Below are positions 116 to 32,389 of a stretch of DNA of 55,348 nt, piece by piece; position 1 is the stretch's first letter, and each line of letters starts with the position of its first letter. The stretch lies in IMG/VR virus record IMGVR_UViG_3300010370_000047, positions 1 through 55,348 of that record. The stretch is one strand, 5' to 3'. Both the position numbers and the translations under genes were made by a program. Source of the stretch: a virus. Taxonomy: Duplodnaviria > Caudoviricetes. The notes beneath the pieces were generated by a model that searched no databases, was not told the DNA's origin, and was given only the letters and a program-made list of their open reading frames with translations.

Positions 116-1231
116 TTGTTCGTCGACAATGATTTTCCGAAGCTGCTCGGTGCGGAGTTATACCGTCCCCATCCTGCGTATGTCGTAGAGATGGCAGCTG
201 AGCCGGTGGTTGTTCACGATTTCTCGAAGCAACCCGGCCAGACCGTACAGCTTGATCGTTACCGTTTCTGGGGCAATCCCGGCTCGAAAGAGTCTCGGGA
301 GCGCACCGCTGAGCAGACCATCGGTACTGCTAACAGCCGGAACATCGTCAAGGACAAGGTGCTCGTGACCCTCCGCGAGTACACCGGTCCTGCCGACCCG
401 ACTGATCCAACCCAGCCCAGCACCTTTAAGATTGCTCGCGAGACTCTGATCACCGCGCAGCGTCTTCTGCTGGACACCGGCAACCTGACTGCCTTCCACC
501 AGTCGATTGGTTCGCTGACCCTGCTCGACGACTATCGTCGGTGGCGCGACCGTGTATTCATCAACGAACTGCTGAAAGCCGTCTCTAAAGGCAAGGCTTC
601 CGACAGCCAAGGTGGATACTACTACCCCGGCGATCTCGCTGTTGGTAGCCTCACCTACGCCAACGCCGAGCAAGCTAAGTTCGACGTTAAGGACGACCTG
701 CTGCGCGTGGTGAAGAGCCTGCGTAAGCGTAACGTTCCTACCTACCAGGACGGTTTCTATCGCTGCGTTTGCGATCCTACCTTCCTGATGCACCTGCGTC
801 AGAACAGCGACTTCCGTGAAGTTGCTCGTTACCCTGGCAATGGTCAGATCAACCCGCTCATGTCGGCGATGCAGCCTAACGCTGCTATCTACATGGGTCA
901 GGGCTTCGGTCAAGCCACCTTTGTGGCGGGTGAGCCGATCATGCCCACCGGTTTCGTGTTTGAAGGCGTGCGATTCTTCGAATCCACCAACATGCCTACT
1001 CAAACCGCAACCGCAACCATCGCTGGTACCAATAAGTCTTACGACACCGCGATTGGTATGTTCTTCGGTCCCCAGAGCGTGGGCGTCGGTATCGGCGGCA
1101 ACAACGCTCAGGTGCTCCTGAACAACAACGACGACTTCAGCCGTTTCATCATGATGATTTGGAGCCTGTACGCAGGTTTCGAACTTCTGAACGCTGATTT
1201 CGCCACCATCGGCTACTCCTTTAGCGCTTGA
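116..1231 (+). CDS. Major capsid protein (HK97-fold, N4-gp56-like)
   Basis: 371 aa. GGAGG at 103-107 precedes the TTG start. Strong C/T-ending codon bias suggests high expression. N-terminal FSKQPGQTVQL, central YRCVCDP...LRQNSDF, FEGVRFFES and C-terminal NDDFSR...W..YAGF follow the pattern of N4-gp56-type capsid proteins (from memory). Confidence 0.75.
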   Translation: MFVDNDFPKLLGAELYRPHPAYVVEMAAEPVVVHDFSKQPGQTVQLDRYRFWGNPGSKESRERTAEQTIGTANSRNIVKDKVLVTLREYTGPADPTDPTQPSTFKIARETLITAQRLLLDTGNLTAFHQSIGSLTLLDDYRRWRDRVFINELLKAVSKGKASDSQGGYYYPGDLAVGSLTYANAEQAKFDVKDDLLRVVKSLRKRNVPTYQDGFYRCVCDPTFLMHLRQNSDFREVARYPGNGQINPLMSAMQPNAAIYMGQGFGQATFVAGEPIMPTGFVFEGVRFFESTNMPTQTATATIAGTNKSYDTAIGMFFGPQSVGVGIGGNNAQVLLNNNDDFSRFIMMIWSLYAGFELLNADFATIGYSFSA

Positions 1232-4006: not shown

Positions 4007-5587
4007 ATGGCTCCTAAACCTTTAACAGCCCAGGATCTTATGAACCTGGCAGGTGTTTTTGCTGGAGCCATAGGCGGTCAATTCCGTAAAGCCGCTGGGA
4101 GAGCTGGTGTTTTGCCTGCTGAAAGGCAGCTCCCTCGTGAAACCATTCAATCTGTCCAGGGAGTTTTTACCCCTCCCGCAAAACCGGCTGTTCGTGCAGG
4201 CGGTGGGTCAACATTTCGCATGGGCGCTGCAGAAACCCCTCCTGCTGCGCCTCCCGTTCGTCGTCCCGAGCCCCCCGTAGCTGGAATCTTCCAGCCTTCT
4301 TTAACTCCTGTTGTTCGTTCGACGGCTCAATCCTCTGTCCAAGCTCCTCCTGTTAACGTCCCGACTCCGAGTCAGGTCGTTACACGTCCTTCTGTAGAGA
4401 TTGATCCACGTCAAGTTTATGGTCCTTCTTTAGAGGCTCCTGCTCCGTCCGTTCAAGCCGAACGGTTTATCCCTAAAGGCGCCGAAATTTTTCAGCCTTC
4501 GTTGATGGGTCGATACAACCCCCAAACGCAGAACATGAGCCCCACCCAGATGAGTGGGAAATTCAGAAAAGGGTTTGCCAGCGAGTTTGAATACGCCCCC
4601 GGTGGTACTCGCACCTTTAGTGATGAAACCTTTGTTGGTCCTCTCCAGGCAGCCCCGACCCCCTCGGTCCGAGCTACTCCCGACGCTGCCGGTACTGTTT
4701 ACGATCAGCTTCCCTTGAATCTTCGTACCGACATTACCTCAGCGTGGACTCCTCAAGGTGCCGCACTTCGGAATGCGTTAACTAATCTGCAGGGGAAGCT
4801 TCCTCTCTTAGCTGGTCTGGGGACTGCGGGTATAACTGCGGCAGGTGTTACCGCTTATAACTTGTTTGGCGGTCAAGGAGAAGAAGCTCCTCTTGGCCCC
4901 ACAACATCCGCTCCACCGGTTTCTTTAGAGGAGGAAACTGCTCCTAATAATGTCGATGCTTCGCGAGCTGCCGCTCAAACTGAAACAGCCCGAGCCGCAG
5001 CCGCCGACCTAGCGGGTGGTGACCTGAGTGCCCGGACTCAACGCTTTAGTGACCGGGACAGCAACTTGACTCAAGCTCGGCAAGCTGCTGAAGCGAGCGC
5101 TCGTCTCGATCCTTCGCGGACAGGCGGTGCCGCGACAGCCCCCACACGATCCGACGTGGGCGCTCCTGCTGATTACAAACAGATCGCGCAATACTATGCG
5201 GCTCGCCGCCAGGAGGCTTTAAAGCCGAAAACTACTGATGAAACCCTCCTTGAGCTTCAAGCTACCGGCGCTCTGGATAAACCCGGTATTGCTCAATGGG
5301 CCGCCGCTAATCCTGTTCTCGCTTATGAGTTGAATCAGAAACTTCGCGCTCGCGATATTTCTCAGCAAAGTCAAAATAATGTTGGCGCAACAATTACGGC
5401 GCCTCTTGGTTCTAATGTTCAGAATCTCGTTCCTGGTAGTACTCAGGGATTAATTGATGCTGCTGAAGGTCGTGATCCTGCGATCAAAAACGTAACTGAT
5501 GCAACCGTGACAACAACTATTGCGCCGATGCCAAAGGAGCTGCAAGCTTTCTTCGCTCGTGCTGGTTTTCAGAACCGCGCCTACTGA
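4007..5587 (+). CDS. Pro/Ala-rich, largely disordered protein (internal virion/ejection protein candidate)
   Basis: 526 aa, low complexity, one hydrophobic segment (LPLLAGLGTAGITAAGVTAYNLFGG), located in the structural module. Confidence 0.45.
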   Translation: MAPKPLTAQDLMNLAGVFAGAIGGQFRKAAGRAGVLPAERQLPRETIQSVQGVFTPPAKPAVRAGGGSTFRMGAAETPPAAPPVRRPEPPVAGIFQPSLTPVVRSTAQSSVQAPPVNVPTPSQVVTRPSVEIDPRQVYGPSLEAPAPSVQAERFIPKGAEIFQPSLMGRYNPQTQNMSPTQMSGKFRKGFASEFEYAPGGTRTFSDETFVGPLQAAPTPSVRATPDAAGTVYDQLPLNLRTDITSAWTPQGAALRNALTNLQGKLPLLAGLGTAGITAAGVTAYNLFGGQGEEAPLGPTTSAPPVSLEEETAPNNVDASRAAAQTETARAAAADLAGGDLSARTQRFSDRDSNLTQARQAAEASARLDPSRTGGAATAPTRSDVGAPADYKQIAQYYAARRQEALKPKTTDETLLELQATGALDKPGIAQWAAANPVLAYELNQKLRARDISQQSQNNVGATITAPLGSNVQNLVPGSTQGLIDAAEGRDPAIKNVTDATVTTTIAPMPKELQAFFARAGFQNRAY

Positions 5588-5984: not shown

Positions 5985-6554
5985 ATGAGCACGACAAGCA
6001 CTAACAAGCAGCCCTGTTTAATTGACCGCCCTTTTCTTCGGGGCGCTCGCATTAATAACAGCACTCCAACCTGTAACCCCACCAATCCGAACCTTACTGA
6101 TCTTATTCAGTTAGTCCGCGTGGGTGATCTCCCCTCGGAAGATGGTGCTTTGGTGGAGGATATCTCCATCGTAAGTAACGAAGATTATCCGGATAACAGT
6201 GGTATTCGTACCGCCGATATCGCTTTATATGTTTACGCTCCTAATCAGGCAGCGCCGTCCACGTCCGCTGCATTGATGGTCGGGCGGTTTGAAGTCGGTC
6301 TAAGTGGATCTACTTTTGGTTATCCGCAGCAAGTTCAATTACTAGGTATTAATGCTCCTGTTCCTCAAGTCGGGGATACAAGTTTGGTTGCTCCGATTCA
6401 GATCGGTAAGGGTGAGGGTTTGTATCTAGAAAAAGGTTACATTCTGTGTGCTGGTTACATCGGTACGGGCCCTGCCGGCGCTTCTGGTGTACGCGCCTCG
6501 GGTGGTCTGAGTCCCTCCGGCATTACGATTCTGGCTCAAGGCGGTTTTTATTAA
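5985..6554 (+). CDS. Hypothetical virion structural protein
   Basis: 189 aa, beta-rich, tightly coupled to its neighbours. Confidence 0.5.
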   Translation: MSTTSTNKQPCLIDRPFLRGARINNSTPTCNPTNPNLTDLIQLVRVGDLPSEDGALVEDISIVSNEDYPDNSGIRTADIALYVYAPNQAAPSTSAALMVGRFEVGLSGSTFGYPQQVQLLGINAPVPQVGDTSLVAPIQIGKGEGLYLEKGYILCAGYIGTGPAGASGVRASGGLSPSGITILAQGGFY

Positions 6555-12506: not shown

Positions 12507-13035
12507 TTCTCTCTTCTGTATTATGTACGGACGGTAAGTAATACACAAAACCATAGCATCTAGTTTTAGGTATAGGAGTTAAATCGACGTTATCTATAAA
12601 TAATTTTGGATGTTCTTTTAACACACACAAAGGAAGATCTATGCCTATTTTTTGTGTCGTAATAAGCGCTACTTCACTTGAAGTTAAAAAAATAATACCT
12701 TCATCAAATTCTTGATGGAGGTATTTTCTATAGGCTTCTTCTAACCAGATGCGTTGAGCGGATTTCTGAAATCTCTTTCGTCTGTGATACAAAAGAGGGT
12801 CCGGGGGTTGCTCCCAACTTGTCAGAAAATCTCGCGGTGGGTATAGATAAATGTTTTTAGCTTTCCATTTTTGATTTAAGCCGTTGTCTTTGTGTGTGTA
12901 GTACCTATTAGCACTTACGATCGTATTTGCATGTTTACTCGAAGCCGGATCTAGGTCTATTGTTCCTCCGAAGAAAGTCGCTGTTATTGCAGCAACATCT
13001 ACTGGAGAAACAAAGTCATAGGTTGCTAGTGGCAT
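12457..13035 (-). CDS. Phage N6-adenine DNA methyltransferase-like protein with degenerate motif IV
   Basis: IDLDPASS..AN...A.RYYT..DNGL.Q.W is the phage Dam-like N-terminus. The expected NPPY reads YPPR. Confidence 0.65.
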   Translation of the reverse strand: MPLATYDFVSPVDVAAITATFFGGTIDLDPASSKHANTIVSANRYYTHKDNGLNQKWKAKNIYLYPPRDFLTSWEQPPDPLLYHRRKRFQKSAQRIWLEEAYRKYLHQEFDEGIIFLTSSEVALITTQKIGIDLPLCVLKEHPKLFIDNVDLTPIPKTRCYGFVYYLPSVHNTEERITEFCSLYSNLGRVFV

Positions 13036-13441
13036 CTTCTAACCTTTTCGCGAGCATATCTTCCGCTAAATTTAAATCTATTACATGCACACTCATCCCT
13101 GATTGGTCAGTCATGACGACAACTGGGGAGTCGTTTTCCTGTTCTTTCTGGATTAAGTTTGTTAGTTTTTTAAAAAATGTAGCTAATTCTGCATTCATTA
13201 GCTCCTCAGCTAATGCCATGTCTTTATGGATATCTGAGAGTGTTAAATACTGGGACTCATCTGGTCGCTGTGGGTGAAAAAAGAGAGCACCAAGTCCCTC
13301 TGTATTACGAAATTCTGTGTACAGCGTAACTATATCGCCGATAATCATTTTCACAGCATTCATAGAGATTCTGTTCTGAACCTCTGATTTGCTGAAAAGA
13401 CTCTTAGCTAAACGCTTTGCTTTTTGATCGAAATCAGGCAT
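13016..13441 (-). CDS. Hypothetical protein
   Basis: ATG 13441 (MPDFDQK) overlaps the upstream stop. Confidence 0.6.
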   Translation of the reverse strand: MPDFDQKAKRLAKSLFSKSEVQNRISMNAVKMIIGDIVTLYTEFRNTEGLGALFFHPQRPDESQYLTLSDIHKDMALAEELMNAELATFFKKLTNLIQKEQENDSPVVVMTDQSGMSVHVIDLNLAEDMLAKRLEDATSNL

Positions 13442-13760
13442 CTTGATAACCAGTGAAGTTTTTCCAGGCGTCAGAAAGAACTCTAGTCGAATCAAATAAA
13501 AAATTCGAGATGTTGTTTTCCGAAGGATCTAGTTTGCAATAATGTCTTCCTTCCACTAAGCCTGATGTGCCTCCTGAAGTTAAACCTTGGTATACTAATT
13601 TGTCTATTACTACAGGTTGCACCCCTAACCTCGCTGCGACGGCTTTCTTAGATATAAAAGCTGTAGTTACATTACCTGTTTTTGTGTTGGCGAGAATCTG
13701 AAGCGATGTGTCGATGCTCCGAATAATGTCGAGCAACTCTTTTGAAACAACTAAATCCAT
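13434..13760 (-). CDS. HTH-like DNA-binding protein
   Basis: FISKKAVAARLGVQPVVIDKLV...LVEGRHY resembles an excisionase-like HTH. ATG at 13760. Confidence 0.55.
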   Translation of the reverse strand: MDLVVSKELLDIIRSIDTSLQILANTKTGNVTTAFISKKAVAARLGVQPVVIDKLVYQGLTSGGTSGLVEGRHYCKLDPSENNISNFLFDSTRVLSDAWKNFTGYQDA

Positions 13761-13771
13761 AAGAAATTGAA

Positions 13772-13891
13772 GTGAGGCCGCCAACTCCCCAGGTACCTGG
13801 CAAGTCGGTTCGCTTACGGGCCGCCGGAAACGAGAAAAACGACAGCCACCTCACAGTACCACCGTTTCGCTCGTTCTTGCCCACGGTGACC
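13772..13891 (-). ncRNA. Candidate structured RNA (~120 nt; 5' hairpin plus three-way junction, loop-loop complementarity)
   Basis: Four helices of 7-11 bp whose non-Watson-Crick pairs are mostly G-U on the minus strand. A TAGACT -10 box at 13902-13897 places +1 at the first helix. Confidence 0.65.
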
Positions 13892-13899
13892 TTAAAAGT

Positions 13900-14322
13900 C
13901 TAAGGTTCTCTTAGCCATTGTGTATCAGACAAATCTTTTACAGATGTTAATTTTTTGTTTAGCCCTACCCTTGTTTTTTTCGTTATAGATGGTGTTTCAA
14001 ATCGAGAGACGTGGTGACACGGGTTTACGCAACCTATGGTTCCACATATTCGTTTTAGAGTGTAATTTCCGATATCCGCTTTAAAAAAGCCATAATATAC
14101 ATTTTCTATCTTCATTTTATTTCCGTTTACCCTCAAAGTTTTGTACCCAGATTTCCAGCATTTATGGAGATCTGTCTCTTGAACTGTTATTTGTGTGAGT
14201 AGGGCTCTTAGTTCAGGTTCTAGCTTATTTAAATCGGGAAAGAAAACAGGATCATCTATAGTTAATAGACAATCCTGACATACTGTTTGAGTTTTTTTGT
14301 GTGTTCTGTCGCGTAAACACAT
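13900..14322 (-). CDS. HNH (Zn-binding loop)-like protein lacking the catalytic His
   Basis: CWKSG...RICGTIGCVNPCHH versus canonical CW.W.G...HR...H.CDN..C.NP.HL. Confidence 0.55.
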   Translation of the reverse strand: MCLRDRTHKKTQTVCQDCLLTIDDPVFFPDLNKLEPELRALLTQITVQETDLHKCWKSGYKTLRVNGNKMKIENVYYGFFKADIGNYTLKRICGTIGCVNPCHHVSRFETPSITKKTRVGLNKKLTSVKDLSDTQWLREP

Positions 14323-14741: not shown

Positions 14742-15070
14742 AAACTAAGGGTGTCTCTAATGAGTTTGTTAAAATTACCGTTAAGTACGTAAAGAGTGTG
14801 ACTCTCAAAAGAGATCTTTTTAACTAGATCCATTTTTATGAGTTGTTTGAGAGCCCGGAGAAGGCTGTCTTTTGGTAAATACAGCTCACTCCGTATCTCC
14901 TTAGTCGATAACGGCTGCCTGAAGGTTAGCAGCTGAACTAGATCTTCGTAAAGCCGGATTGCCGAAGCTCTTTTTTTATCAACTGAACCGTCCGTGCTGA
15001 GAACGATTTTCCGTATTTGATTTTGAGCAATCCCAAAATCGTCTGTGTGCTCGCGTTGTTGTTGCTCCAT
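14738..15070 (-). CDS. Winged-helix (MarR/TrmB-like) domain protein; start uncertain
   Basis: PLSTKEIRSELYLPKDSLLRALKQLIKMDLVKK...YVLN. The first ~44 codons overlap the upstream gene. Confidence 0.6.
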   Translation of the reverse strand: MEQQQREHTDDFGIAQNQIRKIVLSTDGSVDKKRASAIRLYEDLVQLLTFRQPLSTKEIRSELYLPKDSLLRALKQLIKMDLVKKISFESHTLYVLNGNFNKLIRDTLSL

Positions 15071-15612
15071 TGTTGGATGTCCAGTTTCATCTGTGGGCTC
15101 ACCTTACGCGCTGGGCTTTTACCTAGCATCATATGGTAAGGATTTAAACAGAATTGATCGTCGCATGTAGAAAGCACATGATCGTCGGATTTTAACTTGA
15201 CATTGAAGAAAACTTGATACACATAGCGTCTAGGACGCAGAAGCTGACCCTTCTCGGCGAACCGCTCAAGGGATTCAGGAAGATAAAGATGCTGAATCTT
15301 ATTGATGGCCTTTCGGCGACGGCGGATCCACGCTTCGACCATTTGGGTACGGGAGCGAGCGGATCGCGACTCGTGGACACAAAGAGGGCAAGCGAGCAAG
15401 CCTTGAACGGGCGACGCCTTCTCCAGGTCCTCAAGGGCTACTGGAATTGGCTCATGTCTTCCACAGGCGCAGTCGAGGACACCTCGCTGACCGAAGACCG
15501 CCAGTTCGAAGTTCCCCAGCTCTCGCCTGCCCTCAGGAGACCCCTCGGGAGGTTCGACGGTAGTGGGTTCAAGGATGCCTAGGTAAGCAGTAAGTAATAA
15601 GGATGTACTCAT
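14938..15612 (-). CDS. Zn-ribbon + degenerate HNH + HTH protein
   Basis: CACG...CPLC Zn ribbon, VLSTCDDQFCLNPYHM, and an HTH-like C-terminus. ATG 15612 follows TGcTATACT (hexamer at 15640-15635). Confidence 0.55.
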   Translation of the reverse strand: MSTSLLLTAYLGILEPTTVEPPEGSPEGRRELGNFELAVFGQRGVLDCACGRHEPIPVALEDLEKASPVQGLLACPLCVHESRSARSRTQMVEAWIRRRRKAINKIQHLYLPESLERFAEKGQLLRPRRYVYQVFFNVKLKSDDHVLSTCDDQFCLNPYHMMLGKSPARKVSPQMKLDIQQWSNNNASTQTILGLLKIKYGKSFSARTVQLIKKELRQSGFTKI

Positions 15613-15721
15613 AAACCCGTTATCGGGTGTATCCAGTATAGCAGAGCGTACACAGCGCACACAGTGCATAGCTCGTCCGTCCGGACCCCTGAAAAGGGAT
15701 TTTCTATTTAAGGAGAGTTGG

Positions 15722-16193: not shown

Positions 16194-16538
16194 GTGCTGA
16201 CGAAATCTCAGGTTGAGGAACGGATCTCCCGCTTTTCAGATATTTACGATATGTACTTGAGCGGGAGCACGTATTCCCAGATTGGTGCGAAATATAAAAT
16301 CTCGAAAGAGCGCGTCCGTCAAATTCTCGTTAGTTACTGCACTGCGCAGCAGTACGCGAAGGTTCGGGAACGTATTGAACGTCGCTGTTTATCGACCTAT
16401 TTGGGCAAGGAAATTATTGCTCAGTTAGAAGCAGGTCATTCGTGCAGCCAAGTCGCTAAAAATATGGGTTGCAGTTTGTCGCTAGTTAAACGAGTTTCTG
16501 CTAAGAAGAACAAAGAAAAGAATGATCAGTTAAACTGA
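16194..16538 (+). CDS. Double-HTH regulator (sigma-70 region 4-like)
   Basis: TYSQIGAKYKISKERVRQI and SCSQVAKNMGCSLSLVKRV. Confidence 0.7.
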   Translation: MLTKSQVEERISRFSDIYDMYLSGSTYSQIGAKYKISKERVRQILVSYCTAQQYAKVRERIERRCLSTYLGKEIIAQLEAGHSCSQVAKNMGCSLSLVKRVSAKKNKEKNDQLN

Positions 16539-31509: not shown

Positions 31510-31677
31510 ATGCGCTTCGCTGGCCCGATGCTCGACCTGCAGCCTGAGGAGATGCCTTACGTGTCGCAGCGCTACGCCGGCAGCGTGGCCAAGGAAAACC
31601 CTGGTCTTGTCGAACGCATCACTGCTGCTATCGTTCCGGGACAGCAAGCCGCCGAGCATGAGCGTCCCGCTCGATAG
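31510..31677 (+). CDS. Small protein (55 aa), not in the ORF track
   Basis: MRFAGPMLDLQPEEMPYVSQRYAGSVAKENPGLVERITAAIVPGQQAAEHERPAR* fills the gap before thyX. Confidence 0.5.
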   Translation: MRFAGPMLDLQPEEMPYVSQRYAGSVAKENPGLVERITAAIVPGQQAAEHERPAR

Positions 31678-32389
31678 TCTTCATCGCGTAACCCTCGACT
31701 GGATAACTCCGCAGGCTGAGCGGGTTATTGCAAGACATGCTCGGGCCTCCACGATTGATCCGGATCGTTCGGAGTATCTCGGGCTTTTAAAGTACTGCAT
31801 TTCTCACGGACATTACAGTGTCTTTGAGCAAGCTTGTGCCGCCTTCGAGATTATTACTTCCCGAGGTATCTCGGCTCAAATTATTCGCCATCGTTCTTTC
31901 TGTTTCCAGGAGACAAGTCAGCGATACTGCAATCCACTCGATGTACTTGGACATCACGTAGACGATATATCAGAGTTTGAACTGCGTTCGCAAGACCTTA
32001 AGAACAGGCAAAATAGCGAGCCCTATACGGATGACGTTATTGAGTCCAAATACAGGAACCGTATTCGAGATGTATTTTCGGATGTAACCAAGCTGTACGA
32101 CGACATGCTCGCGGACGGCGTGGCCAAAGAAACAGCTCGAAACATCCTCCCTATGTGTTCGCCCACCCGGCTGCACGCGCAAGGCAATATGCGCAGTTGG
32201 CTCTTTTACGTTGGGCTCCGTTCTGTCCCTGGTACGCAACGAGAGCATCGATACATTTCTAACTGCGTTGGCCGAGAGCTACGCGATTTGATGCCAGATC
32301 TGATCGGTGCTGTCGTTCGAGCCGCTATGGACAACCCTGCTTCTGGGCTCGAAGGTTGGAAATTTATTGATACCTTGCAAGCTGGCTAA
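31658..32389 (+). CDS. thyX: Flavin-dependent thymidylate synthase
   Basis: GHYSVFEQ, RHRSFCFQETSQRY (RHRx7S motif), AKETARNILP, TQREHR. ATG 31658 is preferred. Confidence 0.93.
   Translation: MSVPLDSLHRVTLDWITPQAERVIARHARASTIDPDRSEYLGLLKYCISHGHYSVFEQACAAFEIITSRGISAQIIRHRSFCFQETSQRYCNPLDVLGHHVDDISEFELRSQDLKNRQNSEPYTDDVIESKYRNRIRDVFSDVTKLYDDMLADGVAKETARNILPMCSPTRLHAQGNMRSWLFYVGLRSVPGTQREHRYISNCVGRELRDLMPDLIGAVVRAAMDNPASGLEGWKFIDTLQAG

Follow-up and report, generated by a model that had tools for sequence, protein, structure and literature searches.

The window analysed here, a stretch of 55,348 nucleotides that makes up an IMG/VR virus record (IMGVR_UViG_3300010370_000047, Caudoviricetes, estimated to be 69% complete), encodes on its minus strand, between positions 13772 and 13890, an RNA of about 120 nt that is a member of an undescribed structured-RNA family of S-EIV1-like freshwater cyanophages. 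The covariation among its relatives leaves hardly any doubt that this is a real and conserved structured RNA, composed of a 5' hairpin (P1), a three-way junction of the helices P2, P3 and P4, and a kissing interaction or pseudoknot between the loops of P1 and P3 (L1:L3). The apical loop of P4 is self-complementary in almost every sequence of the group to which the window belongs, and the RNA is read here, with confidence and reserve in equal parts, as a putative autonomous, dimer-prone module which in the window would also act as the leader of a gene for a winged helix-turn-helix (HTH) protein.

Covariation of the fold among relatives

Relatives of the RNA were collected via the protein of 108 amino acids (aa) that is encoded downstream of it (13434-13760, minus strand, ATG at 13760). 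A first search resulted in 5 viral loci, and a profile built from three sequences of this protein recovered 37 viral loci together with 115 confirmed metagenome loci, 80 of which were used. In total, 127 stretches carried a match to the protein, and after the removal of two window loci on the other strand and of two stretches that were too short, the remainder collapsed to 78 distinct upstream sequences, hereafter called the window's group. The same RNA architecture was present in all 78 of them, including L064, which carries a variant of the anchor motif. A second route to relatives was a core pattern consisting of the most conserved loop and junction letters. It retrieved 78 stretches in viral contigs, every one of which matched the covariance model of the RNA with an E-value of 4.6e-10 or better. 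Twenty-two of these pattern contigs make up a GC-rich group, which scores lower (45-59 bits) and keeps the core.

Covariation was evaluated on 59 distinct segments of 136 nt (set 1), which were aligned and then realigned to the covariance model. In this set 94.0% of the cells were paired, compared with 69.5% in column shuffles, and none of 500 shuffles reached the observed value; the covariation score was 0.706 as against 0.222 in the shuffles. Sliding the 3' partner by 1-3 columns reduced the paired cells to only 34-51%. Changes on both sides of a pair were found in 36 of the 44 pairs. The second set, comprising 54 distinct sequences found by the core pattern, gave almost the same picture, with 92.8% of the cells paired versus 63.3% in shuffles and both-side changes again in 36 of 44 pairs. 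The two sets together hold 91 distinct RNA sequences. Over all the alignments evaluated, such double changes affected 35-36 of the 44 pairs. When RNAalifold was given a plain MAFFT alignment, it predicted P1, the core of P2, P3 and P4 unaided.

The individual helices contribute to this signal to different degrees, and the following values refer to the 59 sequences of set 1, the positions to the minus strand of the window. P1 (13858-13890) pairs 13890-13883 with 13865-13858 and encloses the 17-nt loop L1 (13882-13866), which features a conserved AAGAA-N-G purine tract; all eight of its pairs show both-side changes and 95.1% of its cells are paired. P3 (13819-13847) pairs 13847-13840 with 13826-13819 around the 13-nt loop L3 (13839-13827), likewise with both-side changes in 8/8 pairs and with 97.2% of cells paired. 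The three-way junction is closed by P2, whose 5' strand GUGAGG (13849-13854) pairs with the 3' strand CCUCAC (13777-13772), the latter being preceded by the junction strand J4/2, CGG at 13780-13778, so that the two together occupy 13772-13780. Five of the seven modelled P2 pairs change on both sides; a core of 5 bp is well kept, and the two outer pairs are unpaired in 31/59 and 37/59 sequences. P4 (13781-13808) pairs 13808-13797 with 13792-13781 and is built from a base stem, a conserved U-G/G-U step and an apical stem, with both-side changes in 10 of its 12 stem pairs. The step reads G-G at its second position in the window sequence.

The pairing between the two loops is the best kept of all. 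Its 5' half GAACGAG (13870-13876) lies in L1 and its 3' half CUCGUUU (13834-13828) in L3, and 99.8% of the cells of this helix are paired. Column pair 33-82 reads AU in 26 sequences, GC in 15, CG in 10 and UA in 8, and column pair 36-79 reads CG in 29, UA in 27 and GC in 3. P1 and P3 each keep 8 bp across the relatives, as is expected of side-by-side helices with kissing loops, and the equal, conserved lengths of the two helices favour an L1:L3 kiss in cis.

Thirty columns are conserved in at least 95% of the sequences, and 18 of them fall within L1, L3 or the junction strand J3/4. At this level of conservation L1 keeps G26, A28-A32, G34 and G35, and L3 keeps a UUUU at its start and a UUUC at its end. 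J3/4, which in the window is CGUAAGCGAA (13809-13818), keeps the four purines G97, A100, G103 and A104. These conserved junction purines and the U-G/G-U step of P4 complete a compact core, and the G-N-R-A-N-N-G-A centre of J3/4 recurs in the GC-rich group. The fold is also preserved over very different sequence distances: the closest relatives of the window, L003 and L004, display compensatory changes in P3 and P4, and L005 folds identically with nearly no sequence identity to the window.

The functional strand can be read from the wobble pairs. G-U pairs are common and partly invariant, with a U-G pair in 59/59 sequences (the one in P4) and G-U pairs in 58/59, 46/59 and 33/59 at three further positions, which identifies the minus strand as the functional one. 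Stop codons occur in all three forward frames in 41 of the 59 regions, meaning that the RNA region is non-coding; a small open reading frame (ORF) of 70 aa that runs across it (13672-13884) was rejected on the same ground.

Taken by itself, the window sequence is weak evidence for a structured RNA. The minimum free energy of the minus strand is -50.6 kcal/mol (z -1.83), a value that 13 of 200 shuffles equal, and the corresponding fold fuses both loops into one long hairpin in place of P1 and P3. The plus strand folds worse (-37.5 kcal/mol, z -0.70). The RNA region stands out as a G+C island (0.54-0.56 versus about 0.38 in the flanks), and a covariance-model search located a single copy in the window. 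An earlier note, made from the letters of the window, had already described the helices, the loops and the hexamer upstream of P1, all of which are present on the minus strand where it had placed them. Its claims of a structured minus-strand RNA, of a three-way junction with complementary loops and of G-U pairs that work on this strand only were each borne out by the comparison of relatives. Its proposed switch, in which GGCAAG of L1 pairs alternatively with CUUGCC of P4, fell away, as 60.7% of the cells were paired compared with 60.6% in shuffles and 248 of 500 shuffles reached the observed level. A pairing of L1 with the pyrimidine linker near the AUG was discarded likewise (longest match 4.68 versus 4.66 in shuffles). 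The complementary loops were recognized in that note; the self-complementary apex of P4 and the link to a cyanobacterial hairpin, both described below, had been overlooked.

Self-complementarity of the P4 apex and the TAnnnT box

In the window P4 ends in the tetraloop GUAC (13796-13793), which is its own reverse complement. The apex is self-complementary in 58 of the 59 sequences of set 1, where it takes the forms GUAC, GCGC, AUAU, GAUC, ACGU, GUGC, AUGU and GUAU, and the same property was confirmed in set 2. The single exception is L042, in which a three-base loop replaces the palindromic apex. The outer columns 118-122 read GC in 46 sequences, AU in 12 and GU in 1, and the adjacent central columns 119-120 read UA in 28, CG in 22, UG in 5 and AU in 4. 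A tree computed from the rest of the RNA, with the apical stem and loop excluded, calls for at least 15 changes of the central dinucleotide, all of them within the self-complementary set. UG, the wobble intermediate of UA and CG, occurs in the apex and CA never does.

Two adjacent bases are unable to pair with each other within one hairpin, and the partner of the apex must therefore carry the same sequence. A second copy of the RNA is the simplest such partner, which would result in an RNA-RNA homodimer, and pairing of the apex between molecules is accordingly favoured over other readings of the columns, with some way to go before certainty. Cofolding of natural P4 hairpins favoured the duplex by 12-20 kcal/mol in 14 of 16 hairpins from the window's group, with lower values for L042, which has no palindrome (7 kcal/mol), and L064, whose palindrome contains wobble pairs (9 kcal/mol). 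In the GC-rich group every distinct sequence listed, with one exception, has a GAUC-centred palindrome; the GAUC-centred apexes gave 10-16 kcal/mol, and 4-6 kcal/mol was obtained for L133, which lacks a palindrome, and L141, whose palindrome spans four bases only. Nearest-neighbour energies of this kind speak for the plausibility of a dimer and are not evidence of one.

The 5' border of the RNA is marked by a hexamer of the form TAnnnT, which in the window is TAGACT (13897-13902, minus strand), resembles a -10 element, lies 6 nt ahead of the first P1 pair and overlaps the TAG stop codon of the upstream ORF. Such a hexamer stands at a fixed distance in all 78 distinct upstream stretches of the window's group, as TAAACT in 25, TAAAAT in 13, TAGACT in 11, TAGAAT in 10, TAAAGT in 9, TAAGCT in 7, TAATAT in 2 and TATAGT in 1. 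It overlaps the stop codon of the upstream gene whatever the type of that gene (an HNH gene in 30, a gene for a 139-aa protein in 46, others in 2). A TAnnnT hexamer is found in the GC-rich group as well, 6-7 nt ahead of the first helix, and in those GC-rich relatives that bear an extra hairpin 5' of P1 the spacing is kept to the extra hairpin and not to P1. The box thus appears to fit a -10 element from which transcription would begin at the foot of the structure, a reading for which the conserved spacing speaks rather more strongly than anything speaks against it, and it likely marks a type of phage promoter. A GTA-N8-TAC site of activator type noticed by eye further upstream was dropped, being absent where the upstream gene differs.

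Distribution, phage hosts and neighbouring genes

Within the collections searched, the RNA was found only in viral contigs. A strict version of the core pattern, applied to 185,579 prokaryote species genomes (one per species), returned 32 stretches, none of which was real, the best covariance-model E-value being 0.023. Matches to a pattern of the loops alone were rejected as well, as they consisted mostly of coding noise from the peptide Lys-Lys-Asn-Gly-Val. Five genomes of at least 93% completeness carry one copy of the RNA each and are 75-85 kb in size.

The GC-rich contigs encode a major head protein about 70% identical to that of the window. The single match of the head protein among cultured phages is Synechococcus phage S-EIV1 (68% identity), whose 79-kb record has an annotated large terminase. 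This match, together with a cp12 gene in the second group, places the RNA in S-EIV1-like cyanophages. CP12 is a Calvin-cycle regulator carried by cyanophages. Blastn searches against cultured phages gave no match for the window region, for the GC-rich RNA or for a short variant of it. In eight GC-rich contigs (L200, L166, L131, L157, L176, L186, L141 and L175) the tblastn match of the head gene to window positions 116-1231 is broken into 2-5 pieces that lie roughly 0.1-1 kb apart, a pattern that looks like introns or inteins with homing endonucleases.

The neighbourhoods of the two groups differ. None of the seven genes that flank the RNA, and none of five further nearby ORFs that were compared, is shared by the GC-rich contigs, and a profile of the 108-aa winged-HTH protein found no match in five GC-rich records, three of which are complete with terminal repeats. 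The RNA of the GC-rich group is located among the structural genes and is followed on its 3' side either by a TAGCAT box and a 54-aa CP12 ORF (PF02672, 26.9 bits at a cut-off of 22.7) or by a 265-aa ORF. In L175 the CP12 ORF occupies 4627-4788, a position that it also takes in other GC-rich relatives, with a conserved TAGCAT about 23 nt before its ATG, and genes for HNH and LAGLIDADG endonucleases lie upstream of the RNA. The RNA is independent of any one neighbouring gene.

Three further contigs, retrieved with the loop motifs, carry variants that stand as single examples and serve as leads only. L331 (3868-3946) and L255 (about 6343-6392), both on the minus strand, contain minimal forms that consist of the two kissing hairpins only and are followed closely by a Shine-Dalgarno sequence and the start codon (AUG) of a small ORF (61 and 67 aa); the covariance model of the window's group matched neither of them. 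In L345 (9438-9545 and 9568-9651) a closing helix encloses an L1-type hairpin, a GAUC-centred palindromic hairpin of 10 nt and an L3-type hairpin, and is followed by a terminator-like hairpin and then a tRNA gene (53.4 bits).

In the window and in 18 relatives (87.8 kb), every Rfam 15 family stayed below its gathering score, and the novelty claimed for the RNA thus held up against this database. With the threshold relaxed to an E-value of 10, the region 13500-14200 of the window gave three unrelated weak matches, none of them to ribozymes. No description of the RNA was found in the literature, and it may sit under a number among the 10,006 candidate viral RNAs catalogued from IMG/VR (PMC10690425). 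The nearest relation to a known family was detected in the GC-rich group, where P1 with its 17-nt loop matches positions 39-67 in the model of CyVA-1 (RF02965), a candidate cyanobacterial small RNA (sRNA) from a 2017 survey of 224 candidate structured RNAs, according to the available part of the survey (PMC5737381). Fifteen of the 17 loop letters are identical, and the stem is a G+C stem. The matches scored 23.1-26.3 bits (E about 1e-4 to 8e-4), below the gathering score of 41.4, with 23-25 bits in the three complete GC-rich genomes. Both RNAs also belong to the shared world of cyanobacteria and their phages. Different from a family member, the phage RNA aligns to only 29 of the 77 model positions, and its P2, P3 with L3, J3/4 and palindromic P4 have no counterpart in the match. 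The phage RNA is not a member of CyVA-1, and appears to be at most a relative sharing one hairpin; it probably shares that hairpin, and perhaps a partner, with the host motif.

In the window's group the RNA must be part of the mRNA of the 108-aa gene. Counted from the last P2 column of the model up to and including the ATG, the distance is 4-27 nt in 58 of the 59 sequences (one is empty), with a mean G fraction of 0.08; in the window P2 ends 11 nt ahead of the AUG, and the intervening linker UUCAAUUUCUU (13761-13771, minus strand) is free of G and has no Shine-Dalgarno sequence. The 108-aa protein itself had no match in Pfam, even at E-values up to 5, and none in PHROG. Its structural model, with a mean predicted local distance difference test score (pLDDT) of 73, came closest to the winged HTH folds of excisionases and small terminases, the best Foldseek E-value being 0.06 and none reaching 0.001, and a profile search of PDB sequences returned only a small-terminase HTH (E 1.6). 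The HTH or recognition region is invariant among relatives. The description of this gene as an HTH gene is thus weakly supported, by the likeness of fold and against the silence of Pfam and PHROG and the modest Foldseek value. Tblastn with the protein found no match among cultured phages, and S-EIV1 has no 108-aa gene.

Upstream of the RNA, a 140-aa HNH_3-like ORF (13900-14322, minus strand; phrog_1872 endonuclease, E 8.7e-5) is not part of the RNA and sets its 5' border. An association of the RNA with HNH genes was considered and rejected, since such a gene is upstream in 30 of the 78 relatives and lacking in 46, which have the gene for the 139-aa type of protein instead. Some members of both groups have HNH_3-like and LAGLIDADG genes immediately upstream of the RNA (window 13900-14322 and 14938-15669; L175 2622-3143 and 3255-4013), and the conserved RNA gene may be a homing target of these endonucleases.

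Several other features of the window were recorded along the way. As listed, about 60 nt are common to the 108-aa ORF and the next one (13016-13495), a 159-aa ORF that begins with TTG; in L005 the ATG of the second gene stands right at the end of the first, suggesting that the true start of the 159-aa ORF in the window is probably further downstream. A second G+C island (15300-15500, 0.60-0.62) lies in a 243-aa ORF (14938-15669) of the same strand cluster, in a place where several long ORFs overlap on both strands. A ThyX thymidylate synthase is encoded at 31607-32389 (PF02511, 8.2e-35), and the rightward gene cluster opens with a 114-aa HTH protein (16194-16538) that weakly matches late transcriptional activators.

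A putative dimer-prone module and its alternatives

The following course of events would account for these observations. The TAnnnT box would probably provide the RNA with a -10-type promoter of its own, so that the transcript begins with P1, and the RNA would fold as a self-contained module that functions irrespective of the gene behind it. Two copies would associate via the P4 apex, either kissing loop to loop or swapping strands into an extended duplex. In the window the module would at the same time form the 5' leader of the winged-HTH mRNA, where its folded or dimeric state would probably limit access of the 30S ribosomal subunit, because P2 ends so close to the AUG in a G-free leader that has no Shine-Dalgarno sequence. 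Expression of the HTH regulator would thereby be tied to the state of the RNA, possibly to its concentration. Since P1 and L1 of the GC-rich group are nearly identical to the CyVA-1 hairpin, the phage RNA may in addition engage the same host partner as CyVA-1. The cis effect on translation of the HTH gene is put forward tentatively, and for the explanation as a whole, mechanism included, the case in favour and the case against about balance, which makes it the best of those considered.

A stronger version of this explanation, in which the RNA would be an obligate symmetric homodimer or part of a higher assembly and a viral counterpart of CyVA-1, by which the phage hijacks a host RNA pathway or gauges the dose of its transcripts, is conceivable and on the unlikely side. 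Autoregulation by the winged-HTH protein binding its own leader, in the manner described for Aca proteins in the accessible part of the source (PMC13551039), was rejected as a general explanation, as complete genomes that carry the RNA lack the protein.

A number of points weigh against the proposed module. Natural sequences without a palindromic apex exist (L042 and L133), the apex of the GC-rich group is invariantly GAUC, which amounts to conservation only and as GATC is also a DNA methylation site, and covariation is by its nature blind to whether a pairing takes place in cis or in trans. Both ends of the transcript, like the dimer, are putative. No terminator follows the RNA in the window's group, so a free RNA would need processing. 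Of the promoter suggested earlier on the strength of TAGACT, the conserved box and its fixed spacing of 6-7 nt stand, but there is no -35 element and a sigma-70 consensus scan did not report the box; the overlap with a stop codon, moreover, leaves constraints of translation termination or spacing that could be part of the cause of its conservation. For a translational effect on the HTH gene, geometry is the sole argument. The window and its group have no match to CyVA-1 at E-values up to 10. Finally, the RNA is missing from S-EIV1 (best score 9.2 bits, E 1.1, with filters off) and is thus dispensable for the lineage.

The alternatives, ordered by how well they survive, are a riboswitch, a mimic of CyVA-1, a put-like antiterminator, a ribozyme, a ring similar to packaging RNA and a DNA element. 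In the first of these, a metabolite- or ion-sensing riboswitch, the junction and the pseudoknot would build a pocket whose ligand stabilizes P2 next to the start codon and thereby switches translation. The many conserved unpaired nucleotides in junction and loops, together with the pseudoknot, would suit such a pocket, as would the 4-27 nt between P2 and the ATG and the position of the short variants of L255 and L331 directly before a Shine-Dalgarno sequence and an AUG. A riboswitch-like leader had also been suggested in the earlier note; its aptamer-like conserved core and its leader position in the window stand, but the suggestion is weakened by the fact that the same RNA precedes unrelated genes (the winged HTH in one group, CP12 or a 265-aa ORF in the other, a tRNA after the variant of L345) and that no expression platform was found. 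No terminator-like site follows the RNA in the window, no sequestering helix was found, and the two alternative pairings, L1:P4 and L1:linker, are at shuffle level. The GC-rich group has a promoter-like box between the RNA and the gene, and a self-complementary loop would be left without a role. The likeness to purine-riboswitch aptamers, namely two side-by-side hairpins of equal length with pairing loops, a conserved junction and here a 5' leader position, is limited in that P1, one of the two kissing hairpins, is not enclosed by the closing helix P2, that Rfam match and constant gene association are missing here and that no expression platform was found. A riboswitch is distinctly improbable on this evidence, and direct steric control through P2 is possible.

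No better and no worse placed is a purely trans-acting sRNA or decoy that copies or mimics the host CyVA-1 and binds or titrates a cyanobacterial factor, the position before the HTH gene being incidental. Its arguments are the 15 of 17 loop letters and the G+C stem shared by P1 and L1 of the GC-rich group, the different gene neighbourhoods of the two groups, and the terminator-like hairpin and tRNA gene 3' of the L345 variant; CyVA-1 is moreover expressed in the Cyanobacteria of a halite community, according to the part of the report available (PMC7002113). Such a decoy is difficult to reconcile with the window's group, in which the RNA has no terminator and an AUG follows within 4-27 nt, and with an L1 that in the window is too diverged to match CyVA-1. 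The likeness is known from one hairpin, and the strict core pattern found no real copy in the 185,579 species genomes.

A slimmer chance is given to a promoter-proximal RNA that would act on RNA polymerase in cis as an antiterminator, so that transcripts begun at its promoter run past terminators farther on. Processive antitermination of this kind is brought about by the two-hairpin put RNAs of phage HK022. The position directly after a -10-like box in both groups, the independence of the downstream gene and the restriction to phage contigs would all be in keeping with such a function, but terminator-like sites downstream are not commoner than in shuffles (5 versus 3.2 +/- 1.8 expected), the architecture is far more elaborate than two hairpins, and a dimerizing loop is unexpected on an RNA tethered to its own polymerase.

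More improbable still is cleavage of the polycistronic transcript between the upstream and the HTH genes, by a new self-cleaving ribozyme or at a processing signal. Conserved, pseudoknotted cores that appear in varied contexts by homing endonuclease genes are typical of small ribozymes, and the RNA does combine a conserved core and a pseudoknot with varied gene contexts and adjoining homing endonuclease genes. It matches no Rfam family, ribozymes included, at the gathering score in the window and the 18 relatives, however; no candidate cleavage site can be named, and the promoter-like box suggests a primary rather than a processed 5' end.

Kinship with the packaging RNA (pRNA) of phi29 had been suggested by the size of about 120 nt, the three-way junction and the two complementary loops, to which the covariation of these loops, the phage origin and the location of the GC-rich RNA among structural genes could be added. 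In phi29, intermolecular loop-loop pairing builds a ring on the portal, and phi29-like genomes are small. L1 and L3 would here have to pair hand in hand between molecules in this way; the equal and conserved lengths of the neighbouring helices P1 and P3 favour a kiss in cis, and the additional palindromic loop would give dimers, not rings. No such Rfam match was listed for the window or for the region around the RNA, and the genomic setting differs: the RNA is found in S-EIV1-like phages with genomes of 75-85 kb, and in S-EIV1, which lacks the RNA, a large terminase is annotated. Nothing supports the kinship, and a pRNA-like ring is highly improbable. A DNA-level element (an operator, an origin or a methylation palindrome) or a chance fold is the least credible of all: the apex of P4 is in many cases a perfect palindrome at the DNA level, GATC does not vary within the GC-rich group and the following gene encodes a DNA-binding fold, but the frequent or invariant G-U pairs are A-C mismatches on the other strand, the apexes GUGC, AUGU and GUAU are palindromic only with wobble pairs, the palindrome varies in sequence next to an invariant HTH recognition region, and four helices and a pseudoknot covary.

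For the dimer-prone module favoured here, the closest parallels are RNAs that associate with themselves. Retroviral dimer initiation hairpins and the tetraloop kiss of the guanidine-II riboswitch both rely on self-complementary loops, and the RNA described here resembles them in a hairpin loop that evolution has kept self-complementary, in this case via UA, CG, AU and UG. It differs in that the loop comprises four freely varying bases on a fully palindromic stem within a larger RNA, and in that the dimer is deduced. ROOL and GOLLD, large self-assembling RNAs associated with phages, are likewise phage-borne, without an assigned function, sometimes found beside tRNA genes (as is the L345 variant here) and centred on self-association, to judge from the accessible part of their description (PMC12286853). 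They measure several hundred nt and build large cages in that account, in contrast to about 120 nt and one symmetric contact suggested by covariation in the phage RNA. The RNA of the window has no Rfam match to the ROOL or GOLLD families.

Few natural RNAs are known in which self-association is functional, and the evidence for them is usually structural, whereas here it is evolutionary. A four-base loop that stayed self-complementary through at least 15 changes is a clean test case and, the RNA being short, a cheap one. The 91 sequences add an RNA family to the poorly known and widespread freshwater lineage of S-EIV1-like cyanophages and mark a regulatory node ahead of a conserved DNA-binding protein, and the link to CyVA-1, an orphan motif of unknown function, means that work on either RNA informs the other. 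If the reading as an obligate homodimer were true, the quaternary structure of a small noncoding RNA would be readable directly from the comparison of sequences.

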